In this document: positions 33,219 to 58,716 of the stretch, in pieces
Position numbering within the stretch: position 1 is the stretch's first letter
Layout of the letters: every line of letters begins with the position of its first letter
Source of the DNA: Ruditapes philippinarum
Lineage: Eukaryota
NCBI RefSeq assembly: GCF_026571515.1
Contig: NW_026866443.1
Coordinates: 1 to 64,000, forward strand
Length of the DNA stretch: 64,000 nucleotides
Direction: 5' to 3'
Program-made: the position numbers and the translations under genes
Notes under the pieces: model-generated
Database searches by the model: none
Told to the model about the DNA's origin: nothing
The model's input: only the letters and a program-made list of their open reading frames with translations

Positions 33219-34195
33219 CACGGTGCATATCCATATCGGTACCCTCTTTGCGAAATCTGCTGAAACGGTACCCTCTTTGCACATGCACAGGCCACTCTCT
33301 GCTAAAAACAAACAAGCGATGGAATACAATACAGTAAAATTTCAATATAATAAGGAAAGAAGGTATGACACGTGGAAAAGATGTATACCACGGAACACTA
33401 GAATGTATTATCTATGTGCTGATTTGTCATGTTCCCGTTTTTCATGTACTACAAATTCACAATAAGCTACAAAAAATGTCTTGCTTCGGGCTACCTCTCT
33501 TCATTTGAATTTTTATATCACAGGTACCCTCTCATTTTTTACACATTGGTACCCTCAAGGCACGGCATATGCTTTTATTTGCGTTAATCGTTAGGTATGT
33601 AATATTTCTTTATTTATGTAAATATTACATACTTAACGATTAACGCAAATAAAAGCCGATGTCGAGCATTGAGTATACCTACTCGTATTTGTTTAAAAAT
33701 GAGAGGGTACTTGTGATATAAAAATTCAAATGAAGAGTGGTAGCCCGTGCCGCTGCAAAACTGAAAGTAGGGTGTTTTTATGAATTTTACCATTATTTTT
33801 GACAATGTACTGCCATTTGTCCGAAGATGATATGTAAATGAACATACTAAATATGTATGATTCATATATAATCAAGTCACAGGTTCATTTCAGCCCGAAA
33901 AGTATGTCGAGGTGATGGGCGAGGTAACACATGTTGATTTTTGGTAGCTTATTGTGAAGTTGCAGTACATGAAAAACGGGCACATGACAAATCAGCACAT
34001 AGATAAAACATTCTAGTGTTCCGTGGTATACATCTTTTCCACGTGTCATACCTCCTTTCCTTATTACAATGAATTTTTACTGGCTTATTATCCATCGCTG
34101 GTTTGTTTTGAGCAGAGAATGACCTGTGCATGTACAAAGAGGGTACCGTTTCAGCACATTTCGCAAAGAGGGTACCGATATGGATATGCACCGTG
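33219..34195. mobile_element. 977-bp fold-back element with CACGGTG termini and 5-bp TSD TAACT (Transib-like MITE)
   Basis: ~250-bp TIRs plus an inner inverted pair (~33487-33607 / ~33620-33747). TSD at 33214-33218 and 34196-34200; empty paralogous site at ~18515-18532. Confidence 0.88.
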
Positions 34196-35093
34196 TAACT
34201 CATTACAGAAAATTAATATTTGAAAGTCTATTAGGAAATATCATGAAGATAACTAAAAGCATCTGATTCTAGAATGCTCTGTGATAATGTCTTCTAACCT
34301 GTCACTGCGTAAGTTAAATAGCTGACTTATATTTCTTTATAATTTCCAATGACCGTCATTTTTTTAACTAACTTAAATATCAGAAAAAAAACTTAAATTG
34401 AGAATTCATTGGTAAAAGGTACGTTCAGAGTTGACTGATGACCTTTCGCTTACTACTAGGCTGGTATACCTGTCCAACTGACAGTTCAATTTATTTGCTT
34501 ATAGGGACAATAAGTTATTGTCTAAATTAATGATTTTCTTTGGCATTCTTTAAGTTGTTATCTATACTTCTTATATTAGAGTGAGGTCATGTTAGACACG
34601 TCAAAGTGACAGTTGTCAATAGAGCATGTATGACTTACATACTAGTCACTACCTTTGTACATGTTTATTAAAATTTCATAAGTTTACGAGAATTTTCGAT
34701 ATGTTGCTGGTTTCCTATGTTCACAAACATAAAACACAAGAAGCTGAGATACTTGGTGTCTAGTGTAGAAGCAAATTGTTTACAAAGGCTATTCGAAGGT
34801 ATTTTGTAACAAGACCGAACAGACCACAGTCCATACAAGACAGTTGCAGACAAAATAAAAATTAAATTACTGTTACGTTTTTTATCATAACACGTACGTG
34901 ATTGATGAATCACTTGTTATAATATTTCTGTGTTACTTTACTAAAGCATTAAGTGTATACGTCAGTGAGACACTGTGACAGTATCTATACTTATATCATG
35001 TAATTTCATTTTCAATGGTAATAAAAGTTTACCTGTACTATGTCTTTTTTCGTTTTGATGTTAGCTTAAAATACATTATATGTTACCATATTA

Positions 35094-35307: not shown

Positions 35308-37061
35308 TGTCTATGTCATTACACTTATCTCGACATTATTATTTGTCAATTAAATGACGACTACAAGTTTCCATTTTTTTTACCTATTATCCTTAAAAAA
35401 GGCATATAAATAACGTATATAAATAAATTCTTCCTATATTTTATTTTGGTTTTAAGTATTCTTCCTCATTAAAAGTTCAATTTGCCTCAGAAATCCATAT
35501 TTTTTAATACTTTATAAATGTGAAACATGTGTTTAATAATTTTTATATTTAGAGCATGCAAGATATTAACAAATAACGAACGTAGCGCATAATGTGTAGA
35601 AATATGTCATGAAGGTATCAAAATGTAAAAAAGTAGTATTTTGATTTTAATATGAAATACTCATTTGCTATAAGTTTACTAAATGTAAACACAGCAAAAG
35701 ATAGCTAAGCTACGTGGAAAATGAGTATTTTGTAAGAAAAAAGGTTTTTGAGAAATAAAACTGATAGCATTTTTGTGACATAATGGTCCTTTAACGTGTG
35801 TTGTTAACAAAAAAAAAAATGTTACTCATTTTTCATTATACATGTCATTGTGAATTTTACTGCAAGTTAAAGTGAAGTCATGTCAGTCATGCAAAGGTGC
35901 CATATTTCAGTAAAACATGCATACAATGTGGCTTGCAAAATATCATGTGTACTCAAGTGACATAAGTTGTTTACGAGGCTTTTCTATATGTTGCTGATTT
36001 CCTAGAAATAACAAAAATGAAAATCGAACAAATGTTTATGAACACATAATAATTACATAAAACAAATATCCTTACCTGCGCGCTTATGAGTGAATTGATT
36101 TTAAAATAGTTTATTAACAGCAAAATTAGTATATTCTAAGATCATGATACAGATTTGCATATAGGTACTTAAACATAAACAGATATATTTGTAATTTAAT
36201 TTAAGTCCATACACGTGCAAAAATATCGTCGTAGTTATACTAAAGTTTGCAAAAGCTTTGATAAAATTTGATCATCTATGTGAGACTATATACATATGAA
36301 TGTATAAGAAAAAACAAAAAGTATCTTTAAAAAAGAATCATAATAATTATGATGTTGAGTCTAGTATTGCATTTAATGTTTAAATTTTGAAATTATAAAA
36401 TCATATGCAGATGTTGGCAAATACAAAGAATTTTTATAGAAAAGAAGTTTTAAGTCTGAAATAAATCCTTTAAATGTAAAGAAGAAGTAAATAAGAACTA
36501 CAAACAAAACAATTTCTTTCGTACTCAATTTTTTCGTCTCAGATCATTTTTACCGTCATGTATTTCTTTTTTTCTACTATCGTGAATGTCATTTTAGCTC
36601 AAAGAAAAACATTTAAGGTATTGAAGTTTGTTCCAATAGAATTTTAGATTAAAAGTTTATAAATAAAAACGTTTTGTTAGTACGAAATACCGGATTAACA
36701 GATTTGCAACACCTTTGGAAATAAGTGAAATAGACCTAAAATCCGAAAAAAGAACCGAAAGAGAGGCTTCTTATCTTAAACAAACCATTCAATCTTTAGC
36801 GGTTAAATAAATACTTCATAAATATGTAAATTCATTAAAATTATAAACATTGTATATTACTGATAATACCAGATAAGTTCGTTTTCTTATGTGTGTTTCG
36901 CTATTTTCATGCGCATGAGTAAACGGGAAAGTGGTCGAAGTTGAAAGCGGTGATTGTTACTAATGTTTGACAATTTGACAAAATCAATATCTCAATAGTT
37001 AAAACAGCGTAAAATAATTTGCATGATGGATGGCATTAAGAATTTATAATAATTTAAAGCA

Positions 37062-38219
37062 ATGACATTACTGTTTGGATTAACACTTATATTAGTCTGT
37101 CTTCATATTGCCTATATTATTAGAGCAACTCTTCATGATTCATTTGCATCTTCTTGCAGTGATATTAACCGTGCCTTTGATATATCGATAGCTACCTCAA
37201 GTAACGATTTATACTATCTGTGTTACCATCAACGCGTTATAATGCTGTCTGGTGATGTCGAATCTAACCCAGGGCCTATAAATGATATGTCGCCATCACA
37301 TTGTGGCCCTCCACATCCTGGTTTTTTCCATAGTCCTGGGCATTTTGCTAACCAAGATACGCAGTATATTGTGCATTCCATGGCAGAATACAATAATCAA
37401 ATGTTTGATGCCATTTCCCAAGTTAAACATGAAGTTAGTGCTGTTAGGTCAGACATGAAAAGTATGAGACATGAGCTTCGTGAAATTAGTACGAAGGTGG
37501 CGTCTATTGAAACTAAACAACATTCCTTAGACAATAATATACAAGAGTTAAATTGCAACTTTGAGAATCTTGACGCCAGACAGGAGAACATGCGCGATGA
37601 ACTTGAAGGAATGGCCATTCATTTGGATCGAAATAGTACTGATGTATGCTCTTTGGATAAGCGTATTTATATGTTAGAATTAAATACGGAAAATGTTCAA
37701 AACAACTTAAGAGTATTTGGTTTACCTGATAATGAAGAGGAACTTCCGGATAGTACGAAAAGCAAGTACGTGAGTGAAATACATAGTATTGTGTTCCCTG
37801 GCGAGGAGTTTAATGATAATAGTATACAGGATATTAGACGGATTGGTAAATTTGATGCAAGGAAACCTCGAATGGTGATCATAAAATTTAGTTGTAATCA
37901 AATAAAGAGTAAAATTTTCTCTTGTAGAAGTGAACTGAGAAAAAAAGGTATTAGGGTATCTAGTGATTTAACGCGTTACCAAAGGCAACAACTCAAACAG
38001 TTAAGTGATAAAGGCATTGTTGGCTATTTTAAGAATGGCATTCTGTATCAGCGGGAAATGAATCCTTCAAGTTCATCACGCAAATACGCAATAGGACGGC
38101 GACAAGGCAATCGACCTATGGAGGGCGTACACACGTCAATTGGGGATGCATCTTCCGTTGACAATGGACCTTCTGGCGAGAATGTTGGCTTTCCAATAAA
38201 CACTAGCCAGGTACACTAG
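37062..38219 (+). CDS. LINE ORF1p: hydrophobic leader, 2A-like motif, coiled coil, L1-type RRM/CTD-like region
   Basis: 385-aa ORF with MLSGDVESNPGP, a heptad-rich segment, and NNLRVFGLPD..EE, RRIGK...PR.VIIKF and GIRVSSDLT motifs typical of L1-like ORF1. Confidence 0.88.
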   Translation: MTLLFGLTLILVCLHIAYIIRATLHDSFASSCSDINRAFDISIATSSNDLYYLCYHQRVIMLSGDVESNPGPINDMSPSHCGPPHPGFFHSPGHFANQDTQYIVHSMAEYNNQMFDAISQVKHEVSAVRSDMKSMRHELREISTKVASIETKQHSLDNNIQELNCNFENLDARQENMRDELEGMAIHLDRNSTDVCSLDKRIYMLELNTENVQNNLRVFGLPDNEEELPDSTKSKYVSEIHSIVFPGEEFNDNSIQDIRRIGKFDARKPRMVIIKFSCNQIKSKIFSCRSELRKKGIRVSSDLTRYQRQQLKQLSDKGIVGYFKNGILYQREMNPSSSSRKYAIGRRQGNRPMEGVHTSIGDASSVDNGPSGENVGFPINTSQVH

Positions 38220-38253
38220 GGATCCGGTCAAGGCCCTAAAATACTGTGACATT

Positions 38254-41200
38254 TTGTTCCTAACATGGAATATTGGTGGAAATATTAACATTATCAAACG
38301 TAAAGATATTATTGAATATTTATCAAAATTTGACATTATAACACTTGTTGAAACTTGGCTATGTGATACGTTGCATATTCCAGATTTATCTCCATTGTAT
38401 GTTACATATGATTGTTTTGCCAGAAAATCCTCTAGCCATGGTAGAAACATGGGTGGAGTCATAGCTTTCATTAAACATAAGTTAATTGGGTTTTTTTACA
38501 GAATAGAAGAAAATTTTAATCATGGTGTTGTTTTTAAGATAAGTCATAATCTTTTTCATACTTCTAAAGATATTCTTTTTTTAGCCTTATATATTCCGCC
38601 GGACGGATCACCGGTGTATAATAATGAGCATAATAAAGGAATAGATATAATTGAAAATATATTAAATGTTTACTATTATAATACAGTTGACCAAGTTATA
38701 GTTGGTGATCTAAATGCCCGAACTGCATGTGAAAGGGAAATCCTTAGTGTAAATAAAAATATTCCTCTCTTTAGAGAATATGATGAAATTTTTGAAGACG
38801 TTAACATACCTATAAGGAAATCATGTGACACATTAATTAATCGTTTTGGAAAACAACTCATTGAGCTATGTAAATGTTTTTCATTGTGTATATTAAACGG
38901 ACGTATAGGTGTTGATAGTGACCACGGTCATTTCACATTTATTAGTCACTTAGGAAAAAGTGTTATTGATTATGCTATATGCAACTTGAATATTTTTCAT
39001 TTAGTTAAAGATTTAATTGTTGATGATTTAGCAGAGTGTGAACACTTTCCCATCATAGTTAAATTTCAAGGTATAAATAATGACATTACAGGAAGTAATA
39101 CTGATGAGAAAAATATATCAGTTAAGCGAGTCTATTGCTTTAATGATGATAATATTTCGCACTACCAGAAAATGCTTTCTAATAACATAGAAGAAGGCAA
39201 TTTTAAAAGTATTGACACAATGATTGGAAATGTTAATTGTCCTATTAATGATATTGTTGTTGAATTTGAAAATACTTTAATTGATTGTAGTAGTGATTTT
39301 TGTAGATCTTCATATAATAGGAAACACAAAATCAATAAAACGTGGTTTGATATTGAATGTAAAAAATTAAAGGCAAGAGTTGCATTTACTCTAAGAAACT
39401 TTAGGTTAACTAAGTCTTTAAGTGATCTGAACCAATATATAGCAATTAAGAAAATATATAAAAATGCATGTAAATCTAAAAAAGAGTTACATAGGGATAA
39501 ATCTATTCGCAAGTTGGCAGATGTGTCAGGTGATTCGCAGTTATTCTGGAAGACGCTTAAAACCATGTCACAGTCAAATGTTGATTATAATACATCACAT
39601 ATTTCTACTGAACAATGGTTTAACCACTTTAATGAGCCATTTAATGATAATTGTATCAATGAGTCAGATTGTACTCAACCATTACTTAATGATGACATTT
39701 GTACAATCAGTGATTTGGAGTCGTCTATCCTTAATATGGAAATTACAGATGATGATATTTTAGATGCATTAAAATCATTAAATACAAATAAGGCAAGTGC
39801 AGGGAATCTAACTGCCAATCACTTGAAACATGGTTCAATGTATATATTATCATATATCAGAAAGCTTTTTAATAGAATTTTTTCATCTGGAGAATTCCCA
39901 GAACAGTGGACTACTACTTTATTGATACCTATTCATAAAAAAGGACCTAAAGATGATCCTGATAATTTTAGAGGTATATGTTTAATTGATGTTTTTAGTA
40001 AGCTTTATATCTATATTGTTAATAAACGCCTTACTTTTTACTGTAACATTTTTAACAAAATCACAGAGGCACAATCTGGCTTTAGAGCAGAATACTCAAC
40101 CATAGACAATGCATTCATACTAAATGCTTTAAAGTGACATTATGCCCATCCAAGGGTATGAAGTGAGTGAACGGGTGAATATCAAAATAAGTTTTTGTTT
40201 TGCCATAATTCCTTTTTATTTAATAATTAAAAATCTTAGGCAGATATATAATTTTATTCAAAACATTTTCCAATATCAGCTGTTGGTCAAACACCATTTT
40301 GAAAGCTAATCTTTTAAATATAAAGTTAATTCAGCTCAACTTGACTATAAAAATATGAGCATAATGTCACTTTAATATCAAAATATTTATGCAAAAAGGG
40401 AGGCAAGTTATATTTAGTTTTTGTCGATTTTAAAAAATAGATAGAGTTGTTCGTAATAAATTATATTTGTCATTAATGAATAGATGTATTAAAGGAAAAC
40501 TTTTTAATGCTATTAAAGCAATATATGTTTCTGTTAAAACCAGAGTTAGAAATGGAAAAGAATTAAGTGATTTTATTAATTGTCCAGTCGGATTAAGACA
40601 AGGATGCAATTTGAGTCCTGTTTTGTTTAGTCTTTTATAAATGAATTGTATGATTATTTTGAACAAAATGGAATGAGGGGAATACAACTCTTACCAGATA
40701 TTGTAGAAATATTCATGTTGTTATTTGCTGATGATGTAGCGCTTACTTCTGACACCGTAGTTGGTCTGCAATCACAACTTAATTTGTTACATTAATATTG
40801 TCAAATTTGGAAATTGTCTGTTAATGTAATTAAAACAAAAATTGTTGTGTTTAAAAATGGTGGACACTTGTCAAAGTACGAAAAATGGTTTTATAATAAT
40901 GAACCTGTTCAAACTGTAAATGGTTTTACTTATGTCGGAGTTTACTTTTCTTCAACATTGTCCATGCATAAAATGTCAGAATTTATGGCTATTAAAGGGA
41001 AACGAGTACTGATTTCACTTTTGACTTCACTATATGATTTGATGCCAGTAAAAAAGGATTGTTACTTTAAAATATTTGATGAGAAAGTTGTTCCAATTCT
41101 CTTATATGGGTCAGAAATCTGGGGTTTGCAAAAATCATAAATGTCTAGAACAAATTCATAATTATGCATGTAAAAGATTTCTCTCCGTGCCACAATATGC

Positions 41201-41927
41201 TTGCAATGCAGCTGTTTTAGGTGATTGCGGTCGATTTCCAATGTTTATATTGACTTGTAAATGTGCTGTTTGTTATTGGCTTAAATTGTTAAAATTACCA
41301 AAACATAGATATGTTTATAAGTGTTATATTATGCTAAAATCATTAGATTCCATAGGACATACAAATTGGGTAACTCATTTAAGAAAAAACCTTATGTCAA
41401 ATGGTTTTTCATTTGTATGGAATGCATAATATGTTGTTAATGAAAAATCTTTTTTGTCTGAATATGTGCACTGACTTAAGGATCAATATATACAAATATG
41501 GACCAGTAAATGTTTAAATAGTCCAAAACTGATTTCTTACTCTGGGTATAAAACATCTTTTGAGTCTGAATCATATGTAAATTATCTACTTATCAGGAAA
41601 TATCGGAATGTATATAGTTGTTTTAGATGTTCTGCTCATAGTTTAGAAATTGAACGTGGGCGATATCAAAATGTTAATAGAGATGCTCGTATGTGTCCAT
41701 ATTGTAAAACAACTGTAGAGTCAGAATTTCACTTTTTGTTAATATGTCCTTTATATGATAATATAAGAACTTTGTATATTGATAAAAAATACTATGAAAT
41801 GCCAGATATGAATAAGTTTAATGCGCTTATGTCAAGTAGTAATGAAAATATTGTTAAAAATACAGCAATAATGATATTTAAAGCTTTTAAAACTAGAGAT
41901 ACATTTGTAACAAATGGGAATCTTTAA
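38254..41927 (+). pseudogene. LINE ORF2 (endonuclease-reverse transcriptase), broken by a MITE, frameshifts and stops
   Basis: APE: TWNIGG, LVETW, VGDLNAR, SVIDY, EHFP. RT: PIHKKG..DPDNFRGI, QSGFR, VFVDFKK, GLRQGCNLSP, LLFADD. C-terminal region: ILLYGSEIWG, CPYC...ESEFHFLLIC. Confidence 0.93.
40133..40371. mobile_element. 239-bp MITE with TTAA TSD (Kolobok-like) inserted in the LINE RT
   Basis: TIR AGTGACATTATGC/GCATAATGTCACT; TTAA at 40129-40132 and 40372-40375. Removing it restores NALISKYLCKKGGKLYLVFVDFKK. Confidence 0.92.
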
Positions 41928-42439
41928 TACCATGTAGAACAGATTACTTAAAATTCAATTATGTTTGTAGATTAATTGAGATTGCTTGATAATTGGAATT
42001 TTATTTGCTAAACCTAATATATGCATAGCGAATATGTCTTGTTAAAATGTGTTTATTATACCGCTCACAAAAAATGTTTATATTGTGAAATGTATATGTT
42101 GGCATGGGCTGGTGGCCTTGAAGTCAATAAAATGTTTGTTTGTTTGTTTGTTAATGTATAGGAGAAGGCATGGTAAACAGAACTTAAGTATCTGAATAAG
42201 GTTATCCTTGAGTAAAACATTTTATTCACAGAAATTTATTGAAACAAAAGATTTTTTAAATTTAAAATGTCTAATTTGAATACAAGAATTTGTAAACTGT
42301 GTATGAGTAGCTTTGTTCCCTATTACGGGTCCTTTCTCTCAAAAATTAGAAGCATGTACCATGTTTAACTAATTTTACAATGGCCAATCAGATTCCGAGA
42401 TTGCAGATTATTATTTTAAAATGACCAATGAAATGGGTG

Positions 42440-44097
42440 CTCACTGTTTCGCTCAAAATATAGTCGGTTAGAGTGACTTGTCCTGATAACATTGCAAATG
42501 GGGTAGAAGTTCAAAATAGGAATAACTGTTGCCTACAAATCGACTCGGTTTGAGTGACCTCCCCTGAAAACATTATAAATAGCGGAAGGATTTATAAAGG
42601 AGGTTACTGTTGCGCTCAAAATAAAGTCGAAGTTACCTCTCCTGATAACATTGCAAATGGGTAAGAGTTCAAATGTGAGGTAAGTGTTGCGCTACAAATC
42701 AAGTTGGTTAGAGTGACCCCGCGCCCCTTTAACAATGCAAATGGCGTAAGGGTTCAAAGGAAGGGAGGTTACTTTTGCGATCAAAATCGAGTCGGTTAAT
42801 GTGACTTCCCCTGATAACTTCGCAAATGGGGTAAAACCTCAAAAGAGCGGTTACTGTTGGGCTAAAAAAAGAGACGGTTAGATTGACTACCGTGAAGACA
42901 TTGCAAATGGGGTAAGAGTTAAAAAGGAGGTTACTATTGCGCTCAAAAAAGAAGGTTAGAGTGACCTCTCCTTTAACCATTGCATTGCATTAGAGTTCAA
43001 AGGTAACTTTTGCGCTCAAAGTAGAATCGGTTGAAGTGACTTTCCCTGATAACTTTGCAAATGGGGTAAGAGCTCAAAATGGAGGTAACTTTTGGGCTCA
43101 TATAACAGTTGGTAAGAGTGACTTCCCCTGAAAACATTGCAAATGGAGTAAGAATTCAAAAGGGAGGTTACTGTTGCGCCAAAAAAAGGTCAGAGAGACC
43201 TTTTCTTAAAACATTACAAATGGCGTTAAGTTTCATAGGGAGCTTACATTTTTTTGCTCAAAATAGTGTCGGTTAAAGTGACCACCCCTGATAACATCGC
43301 AAATGGCATAATGGTTCAAAGGGAGGTTACTTTTTCGCTCAAAATAGAGTCGGCTAAAGTAACTTCCACCGATAAGGTTGCAAATGGGCTAAGGGTTAAA
43401 AAGGGAGGTTATTGTTGCGCTCAAAAAGAGTAGGTTAGATTGACCAGCCTTATTAGATTACAAATGGCGTAATCCATAGTACATGTATTAAACAATATGA
43501 TAGAGAAATAAATAACTGATTCATAGTAAATGTATCTTTCATGCACAATCACAGAAAAAAGGGAGGTTACTTTGCGCTCAAAATAGAGTAGGTTAAACTT
43601 CCCTTGATAAATTTGCAAATGGGGTACGGATTCAAAAGGGAGGTTACTGTTGCGCTTCAAAGAGTTGGTTAGACAGACCTCCCCTTATGACATTGCAAAT
43701 GGAGAAAGGATTCAAAGGTAGGTAACTGTTGCGCCCCAATAACAGTTGATTAGAGTGACTTCCCCTGATAACATTGCAAATGGTGTAAATATTCAAAAGG
43801 GAAGTGAATATTGTGCTATAAAAAGGTCGCTTAGAGTAACCTCCCACGATAAGTTTGCAAATTGGATAAGAATTCAAAAGGGAGGTTACTGTTGCAGGCA
43901 ACACAGTGCTGGTTAGATTTACCTCCCCTTATAACGTTGCAAATGGCGTAAGGGTTCAAAGGGAGGTGGCTGTTGTGCTCAAAAAAGTTGATTAAAGTGA
44001 CCTCCCCTGATAACATCGCAAATGGCGTAAAGGTTAAAAAGGGAGGTGAATATTGCGCTATAAGGAGTCGGTTAGACTCCCTGATCATATTGCAAAA
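42440..44097 (+). repeat. ~82-bp tandem satellite, ~20 diverged units
   Basis: TTGCAAATGG recurs about every 80-84 nt; consensus ...GGGAGGTTACTGTTGCGCTCAAAATAGAGTCGGTTAGAGTGACCTCCCCTGATAACATTGCAAATGG...; interrupted at ~43472-43553. Confidence 0.92.
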
Positions 44098-57925: not shown

Positions 57926-58716
57926 AATTATTTACTAATTGGAAATTCCAATAATTTTTCGTGCACATTTAGGGTGCGCTATAAAGTCAGTTTCATGTTT
58001 AGTTTAAATAATATTTTGTTTATAAACATTACATTTACATGATTATTGACAAAAAATAAATTGTATGGATTAAGTAGTAAGCTTGAAAAGCTTTTTAAAG
58101 AACTCTCTCCGTTTCATGTTTGTTAAGAGCTGTAAGATATGTGTCCTGTCCGTGCTCTGCCTTGCGCCCTGTCCTATTTTCGTTTGGGGTCCTCCTGGGC
58201 TCCTTGCCGCGGTTCCTTTTACTGGGTCGTGTGGGAGTTGCGTTCATTGAACGCCGCCCTTCCGTGTTGATCTTGTTTATCACTTTTTTTTTGTTCCAAT
58301 TAGATGTAGATCCCGGTGAATTTCTTAGTATGTTCCAAAACCATTTGCTTTAGGCTACGAATTTTAATGGGAAACATGTATGATAATTGATAAAAGAACT
58401 GGTATCAAAACTATCAAAGTTAAATATATCTTAAAGCAAATTGCGACCTTATTTTCTGTTGTTGTTGTTAAGTGGATTAGAACGGCCGCCCAACTATATC
58501 CGATGAAGTACCAGCTTATACGGTCTATTTTATGCAATCACTTAAATGGAGTTCAATAATCTTTGACAAACGTGTGGGCGAAAAACAGTCAATTCATCAT
58601 TGGTCTTTGATATTTATAAATTATATTGGTTGCATACAAGATAGAAATTATATGAAAACATAATCAAAATTCCGCATATCTGCCCACAAGCCACTTATTG
58701 AAATAGGAGACATACA

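Follow-up and report, generated by a model that had tools for sequence, protein, structure and literature searches.

The window, by which we mean the whole 64,000-nt stretch of DNA analysed, contains at 37062..38219 an open LINE frame of 385 residues that reads from a methionine into a hydrophobic stretch and then into a 2A (StopGo)-like sequence, which raises the question of what peptide such an element would release and where that peptide would go. Features given below lie on the + strand unless stated otherwise. The initial annotation read the frame as an intact ORF1 starting at 37062, with a signal-like N-terminal leader that ribosomal skipping would release as a 71-aa peptide, possibly a secreted or membrane micropeptide, in an element whose ORF2 is dead. 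The motif on which that reading was built is real. With D at codon 65 and G-P at codons 71-72, the core DVESNPG-P occupies 37254-37277 within a 2A-like sequence at 37218..37277; a six-frame search of the window yields no other D(V/I)ExNPGP, 100 dinucleotide shuffles produced none, and D-x-E-x-NPGP is invariant at the protein level in 13 of 13 families of relatives. The hydrophobic stretch is equally clear at residues 2-20 of the window's frame (37065..37121; mean Kyte-Doolittle [KD] hydropathy 2.41), and the proposed check across family copies found leader and motif conserved and in frame in all 13 families.

The position of the start is another matter. A search of the 1.4-Gb host genome gave 109 matches, and in five of six sister copies (~92% identity) the alignment to the window starts at exactly 37053; the sixth is itself cut shorter. 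Upstream of this point, ~280-540 nt are common to four sisters and missing from the window, whose own 700 nt upstream of the LINE match none of the four. Each of these four carries an MGV(D/N)-type start at the equivalent place. In G000:C5853 the ORF1 frame is open for 42 codons upstream of the window's Met, up to an MGV(N/D)-type ATG, and in the other three it is interrupted by frameshifts between that start and the window's Met. A 1397-nt contig from run X1, with 20 differences from the window, likewise runs 56 nt past 37053 into family sequence. From the sister alignments, the G000:C5853 frame and the X1 contig it follows that the window copy is 5′-truncated 9 nt before an internal ATG. Met37062 is internal, at about residue 43 of the family ORF1; the copy has also lost its 5′ UTR; and the family leader, summing the 42 upstream codons and the window's 71, is 113 aa long (111-135 aa in relatives) rather than 71.

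The whole element, at 37053..42152, is a dead, 5′-truncated, RTEX-like copy lying inside another repeat. Its 3′ end consists of AATAAA at 42126-42131 followed by five TGTT units at 42133-42152, and this simple-repeat tail, together with APE and RT in ORF2 and the 5′ truncation, marks it as an APE-type LINE. The empty site was also seen: in reads and in a contig the left flank at 36928-37035 continues directly into the right flank at 42174-42176, so that the flanks at ~36600-37052 and 42153-42300 are halves of one host repeat. No target-site duplication of at least 6 nt was found at the LINE ends, a 4-nt TAAT match being too short to count. Elsewhere in the window we observed a tandem array just right of the LINE (42443-44076; 81-bp unit, ~20 copies, 66% matches), a 148-bp match (87%) at 58142-58288 to the flank upstream of sister L007, which is probably an unrelated repeat, and two short ORFs on opposite strands (33283-33465, +; 33949-34203, -) whose translations are almost identical, suggesting an inverted repeat of ~180 bp.

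The ORF2 remnant (38220..41927) retains APE, RT and a C-terminal Cys/His motif and is dead, as the initial annotation had it, with eight lesions by our reading: four frameshifts, three stops and one 247-bp inverted-repeat insertion. The passage from ORF1 into ORF2 is itself broken by a 2-nt loss near 38241, where sister L042 and contigs of runs X1 and X4 are in frame. The insertion (40129..40375) is a non-autonomous DNA element present in high copy, and its inverted ends span 21 nt that include TTAA; it is flanked by TTAA and has inner termini AG...CT, by which rule we take it to be Kolobok-like. Read depth over it is ~300 per direction, against mostly <20 elsewhere in the LINE, and some reads skip it.

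That this locus itself makes a 71-aa, signal-peptide-led micropeptide, secreted or membrane-bound, from an intact ORF1 is highly improbable. If Met37062 is taken as the start, the stretch does look like a signal peptide at the head of a frame that stays open for 385 codons, and the equivalent ATG is kept in most sisters of the window copy. However, ORF1 is cut short at its 5′ end, no Met ahead of the helix is conserved in the other families, and the context of the upstream ATG is strong. The contrast that made ORF1 look preserved, zero lesions in its 1155 bp versus eight in the remaining 3.7 kb, is not significant (p ~0.11 by hand calculation). Domestication of the window's ORF1 was considered and rejected on the same lesion distribution and the missing 5′ end. 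The locus is an ordinary dead copy, and a functional product from it is probably not to be expected.

What the leader looks like when intact can be seen in the relatives. Among 40 loci fetched from the match list, mostly picked for long open frames, 16 loci representing 13 families have an unbroken leader of 111-135 aa from start to 2A, while four rows (three distinct copies) of the window's own family have the correct start and are broken before the 2A. All 16 share one layout, MG(I/V)DxxxYRxRxG followed by a basic segment, a 19-residue hydrophobic helix, an acidic or neutral spacer and the 2A, with SDIH usually present between basic segment and helix. The helix starts at residues 41-49 (KD 1.96-2.98) and is separated from the skip site by 49-74 residues, with a net charge of +4 to +9 before it and of -6 to 0 after it, and the start ATG always has a purine at -3 and G at +4. 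The hydrophobic stretch of the window corresponds to about residues 44-62 of this full leader. Only 25-41% identical to the leader of locus L059, the 13 family leaders have M1, G2, D4, Y8, R9, R11, G13 and D-E-NPGP invariant, and the codons of both end motifs vary synonymously among families, which argues that selection acts on the leader peptide. N-myristoylation was rejected as a role for Gly2, which is invariant in the 13 families but missing from many wider matches.

At E<=0.001 a leader profile search gave 524 cluster representatives. Both motifs are present in 110 of the 164 proteins examined; KD>=1.6 is reached by 93 of these 110, a fraction biased upward by the hydrophobic columns included in the search profile, against 0 of 56 equal-length ORF1-body controls. 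The N side is more positive than the C side in 100 of the 110; some profile matches have the N-terminal motif without a separate helix. Lineage members are present in Mactra, and RTE-X expansion has been described in bivalves, which makes a bivalve host probable.

A simple hydropathy and charge scan thus describes a single 19-aa helix with a positive N side, as in a type II signal-anchor, and the L059 structure model places a helix at the predicted anchor position. A cleavable signal peptide would have its hydrophobic core within ~30 residues of the true N-terminus; here the helix lies mid-leader, after the basic segment, so an uncleaved type II signal-anchor fits better than a secreted peptide. 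The leader is likely a membrane-anchored protein of this predicted type, and the alternative offered at the outset, a secreted or membrane micropeptide, probably holds in its membrane-targeted half and loses its secreted half, along with the idea of an N-terminal signal.

The same kind of leader also occurs directly before the endonuclease in single-ORF elements, in the host genome and elsewhere. The RTs of these leader-bearing single-ORF elements form a separate group in the RT tree, in which 26 of 51 RT matches were kept and labels are partly family-assigned. The leader behaves like a portable module in that it also stands at the head of single-ORF elements from a distant RT group. Ten weak leader matches fetched from the host genome comprised five copies of one single-ORF LINE family, two ORF1-type copies, one locus with two leader fragments and two loci without the motif; no DNA transposon or immune gene was headed by the leader among these ten.

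Such mobility invites the thought that the released leader is a membrane protein working in trans, in vesicle loading, cell-to-cell transfer or host modulation, a role comparable to that of an envelope or glyco-Gag accessory. The conserved cytosolic N-terminal motif and the topology would suit such a protein, as would its occurrence in distant single-ORF elements, and membrane roles have been proposed for other ORF1ps (PMC3905857). The 50-70-aa predicted luminal part, however, is unconserved in sequence and length and of low confidence in the L059 model; Pfam gave no match for eight leaders (or for one ORF1 body searched with them), and the ESM Atlas gave no usable match for the one leader searched. 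We consider an activity in trans distinctly unlikely.

Several further arrangements of the leader were observed. The five single-ORF copies L133-L137 (G000 C622, C8989, C13471, C5584 and C3593) belong to a young family with the leader directly before the endonuclease; all five have no in-frame ATG at the leader start and an ATC/ATT-type Ile before GND, and their leader start is possibly non-AUG or upstream. L138 (G000:C3696:6000-15999) carries two leader-2A fragments separated by ~3.5 kb; a stop follows each of them after only 16 codons. Tandem leader/2A matches, or a 2A before long unidentified ORFs, were seen in P0156, P0192, P0224, P0234, P0262, L083 and L086.

Whether the leader is in fact separated from ORF1p depends on the 2A. 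The window has the complete core preceded by hydrophobic residues (VIML at -13 to -10) in the tract at about -19 to -10 that is expected to be helical, and the L059 model places a helix at residues 107-120 in this tract, at low confidence. PMC13405545 gives data on 12 tested peptides whose 11-residue core is identical to that of the window; in this set, to which the window's own peptide does not belong, five skip with continuation, five show fall-off only and two do not skip; the supplement of that work classes one lineage-like 2A peptide as skipping. Release of the leader from ORF1p by 2A skipping is a prediction from sequence: the site and layout on which the initial annotation based a split between leader and cytosolic ORF1p are conserved, and it is the size of the product and its signal-peptide nature that have changed.

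The same body of work allows a different emphasis, in which the leader serves chiefly as a throttle on expression or as a signal for dual targeting. Fall-off or failure at the 2A would lower cytosolic ORF1p, and the unskipped product would be a type II membrane ORF1p of the ER or be degraded, making ER docking a disposal route and not an assembly site. Of the tested ORF1p-linked 2A peptides, 70% reduced protein abundance (PMC13405545, section 14), 2A signal sequences of sea urchins divide products between cytosol and secretion in the cases described in PMC4981915, and in HeLa cells an upstream type II anchor can inhibit the 2A, with the fusion entering the ER uncleaved. A throttle would leave the invariant N-terminal motif unexplained, and the window 2A has only two leucines at positions -19 to -10, which falls in the range that PMC13405545 ties, in its data on this tract, to skipping and not to reduction. 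We regard this possibility as somewhat unlikely; it would replace only the membrane-insertion and release steps of the mechanism we propose below and is compatible with readthrough.

Downstream of the 2A, the predicted mature ORF1p (37275..38216, from the Pro) gives only weak coiled-coil matches in Pfam. The structure model of the L059 protein is more informative: after the 2A it consists of coiled coil, RRM and CTD, the organization of L1-type ORF1p, and its top 11 PDB matches are human L1 ORF1p (best E 8.9e-7). The window protein aligns to the L059-type ORF1p, on which basis the fold is transferred, and by this modeling the protein after the 2A is an L1-type ORF1p. In the intact relatives L032 and L059, Pfam finds RVT_1 and Exo_endo_phos in ORF2. 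By eye, and not by computation, the RT is nearer RTEX-2_NV than the Proto2 and RTE-1 entries compared, and on this visual comparison we call the lineage RTEX-like. A search for RT homologues (proteins of 631-2011 aa) returned no clade names; in the tree of the 26 kept matches, which has no named references, one 16-row lineage with support 99/97 includes the window's family.

How ORF2 is expressed in this lineage is suggested by the junction. Of 41 stretches examined, 32 have a recognizable APE start motif; two of these are distant LINEs, probably L1/Tx1-type, with their own Met. TAG is the last in-frame stop before the APE motif in 27 of the remaining 30, the other three being degraded copies (the window, L041 and L061) with TAA or a frameshift there. 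The TAG directly ends an ORF1 frame of 240+ codons in 19 of the 27 loci, the others being broken upstream, and L032, L059 and L062 have full ORF2s of 1149-1156 codons behind it. In a set of 23 junctions, comprising one locus per family and five metagenome loci, the stop is UAG in 23/23, with A at -1 and G at +4 each in 19/23. An in-frame UAG followed by G (GAU/GGV/GUA) is thus present, as in the UAG-GAU/GGV that PMC13517186, in its treatment of stop contexts, gives as type III readthrough context. Two of the 23 junctions come without the leader and without the full motif described next, and so the in-frame UAG extends more widely than the leader lineage. L051 and L053 are related LINEs without leader or 2A that have an in-frame TAG at the junction and a different downstream sequence.

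In the 21 leader-bearing families the UAG is followed at +10 to +18 by GGYCRARGY, and in the window the ORF1 UAG and the conserved GR-N4-GGYCRARGY-CC motif, a candidate readthrough signal, lie at 38217..38236. Synonymous positions in this element are constrained across the 21 families: GGY in 21/21 (p 4e-5), CGA in 6/6 (p 3e-6) and GGC in 10/12 (p 8e-7), where p-values are calculated against the elements' own codon usage, as if related families were independent. Only 1 of the 21 families has an in-frame ATG ahead of the first APE motif. No stable local RNA fold was found over the 90 nt after the UAG (mean folding z +0.34); a 3-bp hairpin with a CRAR loop is possible in 19-21 of the 21 families, and no compensatory double change was seen in it. 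Type III readthrough usually needs RNA structure, according to the sections of PMC13517186 that deal with it. A UAG at 23/23 junctions and a nucleotide-constrained GGYCRARGY in 21 families together point to programmed readthrough, and ORF2 is likely made by occasional readthrough of the ORF1 UAG.

An alternative is that splicing into the AG-G at the stop, or reinitiation at a non-AUG codon, gives access to ORF2 and that GGYCRARGY serves either process. TAG-G would suit a 3′ splice site, the motif is constrained at the RNA level with no clear structure, and reinitiation is described for SART1 in the introduction of PMC3708506. But a splice site would hardly explain TAG at 23/23 junctions with no CAG, no upstream pyrimidine tract and A at -1 in 19/23; the TAG directly closes long ORF1 frames; and neither splicing nor reinitiation needs ORF1 and ORF2 to lie in one frame. 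We therefore consider this alternative unlikely. Two runs labeled RNA-Seq, X23 and X24, have no bearing on splicing: no joint into the ORF2 start is among the joints listed, at a depth there of ~3-5. In these runs 96% and ~70%, respectively, of the placed reads run into unrelated sequence, and many loose read ends lie at GATC. Because the reads resemble chromatin-ligation libraries, which both runs likely are under a wrong label, we take them as DNA evidence only.

Returning to readthrough as the preferred route to ORF2, these observations lead us to lean, with little better than even confidence, toward a LINE lineage with an ER-inserting leader, predicted 2A release and ORF2 expression by UAG readthrough, of which the window holds a dead, 5′-clipped copy. 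Translation would begin at the conserved MG(I/V)D ATG, and the hydrophobic helix (about residues 41-67), following the basic segment, would engage SRP/Sec61 before the 2A is decoded. The 49-74 residues between helix and skip site exceed the 30-40 held by the ribosome exit tunnel, so the helix should have cleared the tunnel by then. StopGo would then make the leader a separate small membrane protein of type II and release Pro-ORF1p into the cytosol from the ER-docked ribosome, with fall-off rationing output; in yeast, translocation of the upstream protein while the downstream one is cytosolic has been demonstrated (PMC2978324). Finally, a minority of ribosomes would pass the UAG, aided by the GGYCRARGY RNA element, to give an ORF1p-ORF2p fusion resembling retroviral Gag-Pol. 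The likely purpose would be to assemble the RNP in cis on mRNA bound to the ER, where ORF1p would outnumber ORF2p.

The broader form of this proposal is that a widespread invertebrate lineage runs its whole program from one mRNA in the manner of an RNA virus, through two recoding events: StopGo release of a conserved membrane leader of no known family that docks its translation on the ER, and a new 9-nt GGYCRARGY signal for UAG readthrough to a Gag-Pol-like ORF1p-ORF2p fusion, the leader being a portable module found also in unrelated single-ORF LINEs; this we hold tentatively, as falling a little short of an even chance. The lineage lends itself to a clean test of how LINEs translate ORF2 and of where they assemble their RNP. 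A working readthrough motif would be a compact readthrough signal without an evident pseudoknot, and a working anchor would provide a defined mechanism linking non-LTR retrotransposition to the ER. The locus itself offers a caution, in that 5′ truncation can make an internal transmembrane helix resemble a signal peptide.

Ty1 provides a functional analogy for the ER-docked part of the mechanism, although it is an LTR element and the lineage here is a LINE; we know of no 2A-released anchor in Ty1. As presented in the parts of PMC3945221 on SRP targeting of Ty1 RNA to the ER, co-translational docking there nucleates RNP assembly. Membrane targeting coupled to StopGo is likewise found in the 2A signal sequences of sea-urchin NLRs (Roulston et al. 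2016, PMC4981915); in the cases described there the 2A itself is the N-terminal signal, whereas here helix and 2A are separate elements, 49-74 residues apart, in a retrotransposon. Gammaretrovirus gag-pol, the type III case set out in PMC13517186, likewise has a structural ORF and an RT ORF in one frame across one stop; that readthrough is described as structure-aided, whereas no evident pseudoknot and no stable local hairpin are seen here and a short conserved GGYCRARGY element is found instead. Readthrough has been suggested for Paramecium LINE Group 3 in the passages of PMC5405496 on that group; the present case differs in being an animal RTEX-like lineage with StopGo on the same mRNA.

With respect to 2As in LINEs, the 2026 preprint PMC13405545 (bioRxiv 10.64898/2026.06.17.732966) reports, in its account of ticks and one mollusc, a 2A before LINE-1-type ORF1p that likewise lies directly before coiled coil-RRM-CTD. 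The leaders that it gives in full for Elysia and ticks are 54-79 aa long, against 111-135 aa and a separate signal-anchor-like helix here; its sea-slug entry Elysia GFS00708.1, classed as skipping, has a similar N-terminal motif and no separate helix. The lineage here, unlike those examples as presented, has ORF2 after an in-frame UAG, and the preprint's passages on ORF1p-linked 2As do not describe the upstream peptide. The APE-type elements of Odon et al. 2013 (PMC3708506) likewise carry GD(V/I)ExNPGP near the N-terminus, with active molluscan CR1 examples, but the 2As described there belong to the ORF2 of Rex1, Crack, L2, CR1 and Ingi elements. The sole ORF1 case among them, L2A-1_NVe, is inactive, and RTEX is absent from the clades listed; the paper also warns that 5′ truncation creates false start methionines. 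The portions of the RTEX and animal LINE literature consulted (including PMC10294476, PMC5753468, PMC11203168, PMC12338488 and PMC12846837) contain no membrane leader or UAG readthrough, and a literature search to which Repbase Reports and several supplements were outside scope found no account of the membrane leader, the UAG-GGYCRARGY junction or both recodings in one element. A 2A in LINE ORF2, a 2A before L1-type ORF1p, 2A signal sequences and a suggested readthrough in Paramecium LINEs are already known, and to this known LINE recoding the lineage adds two putative signals that are directly testable.
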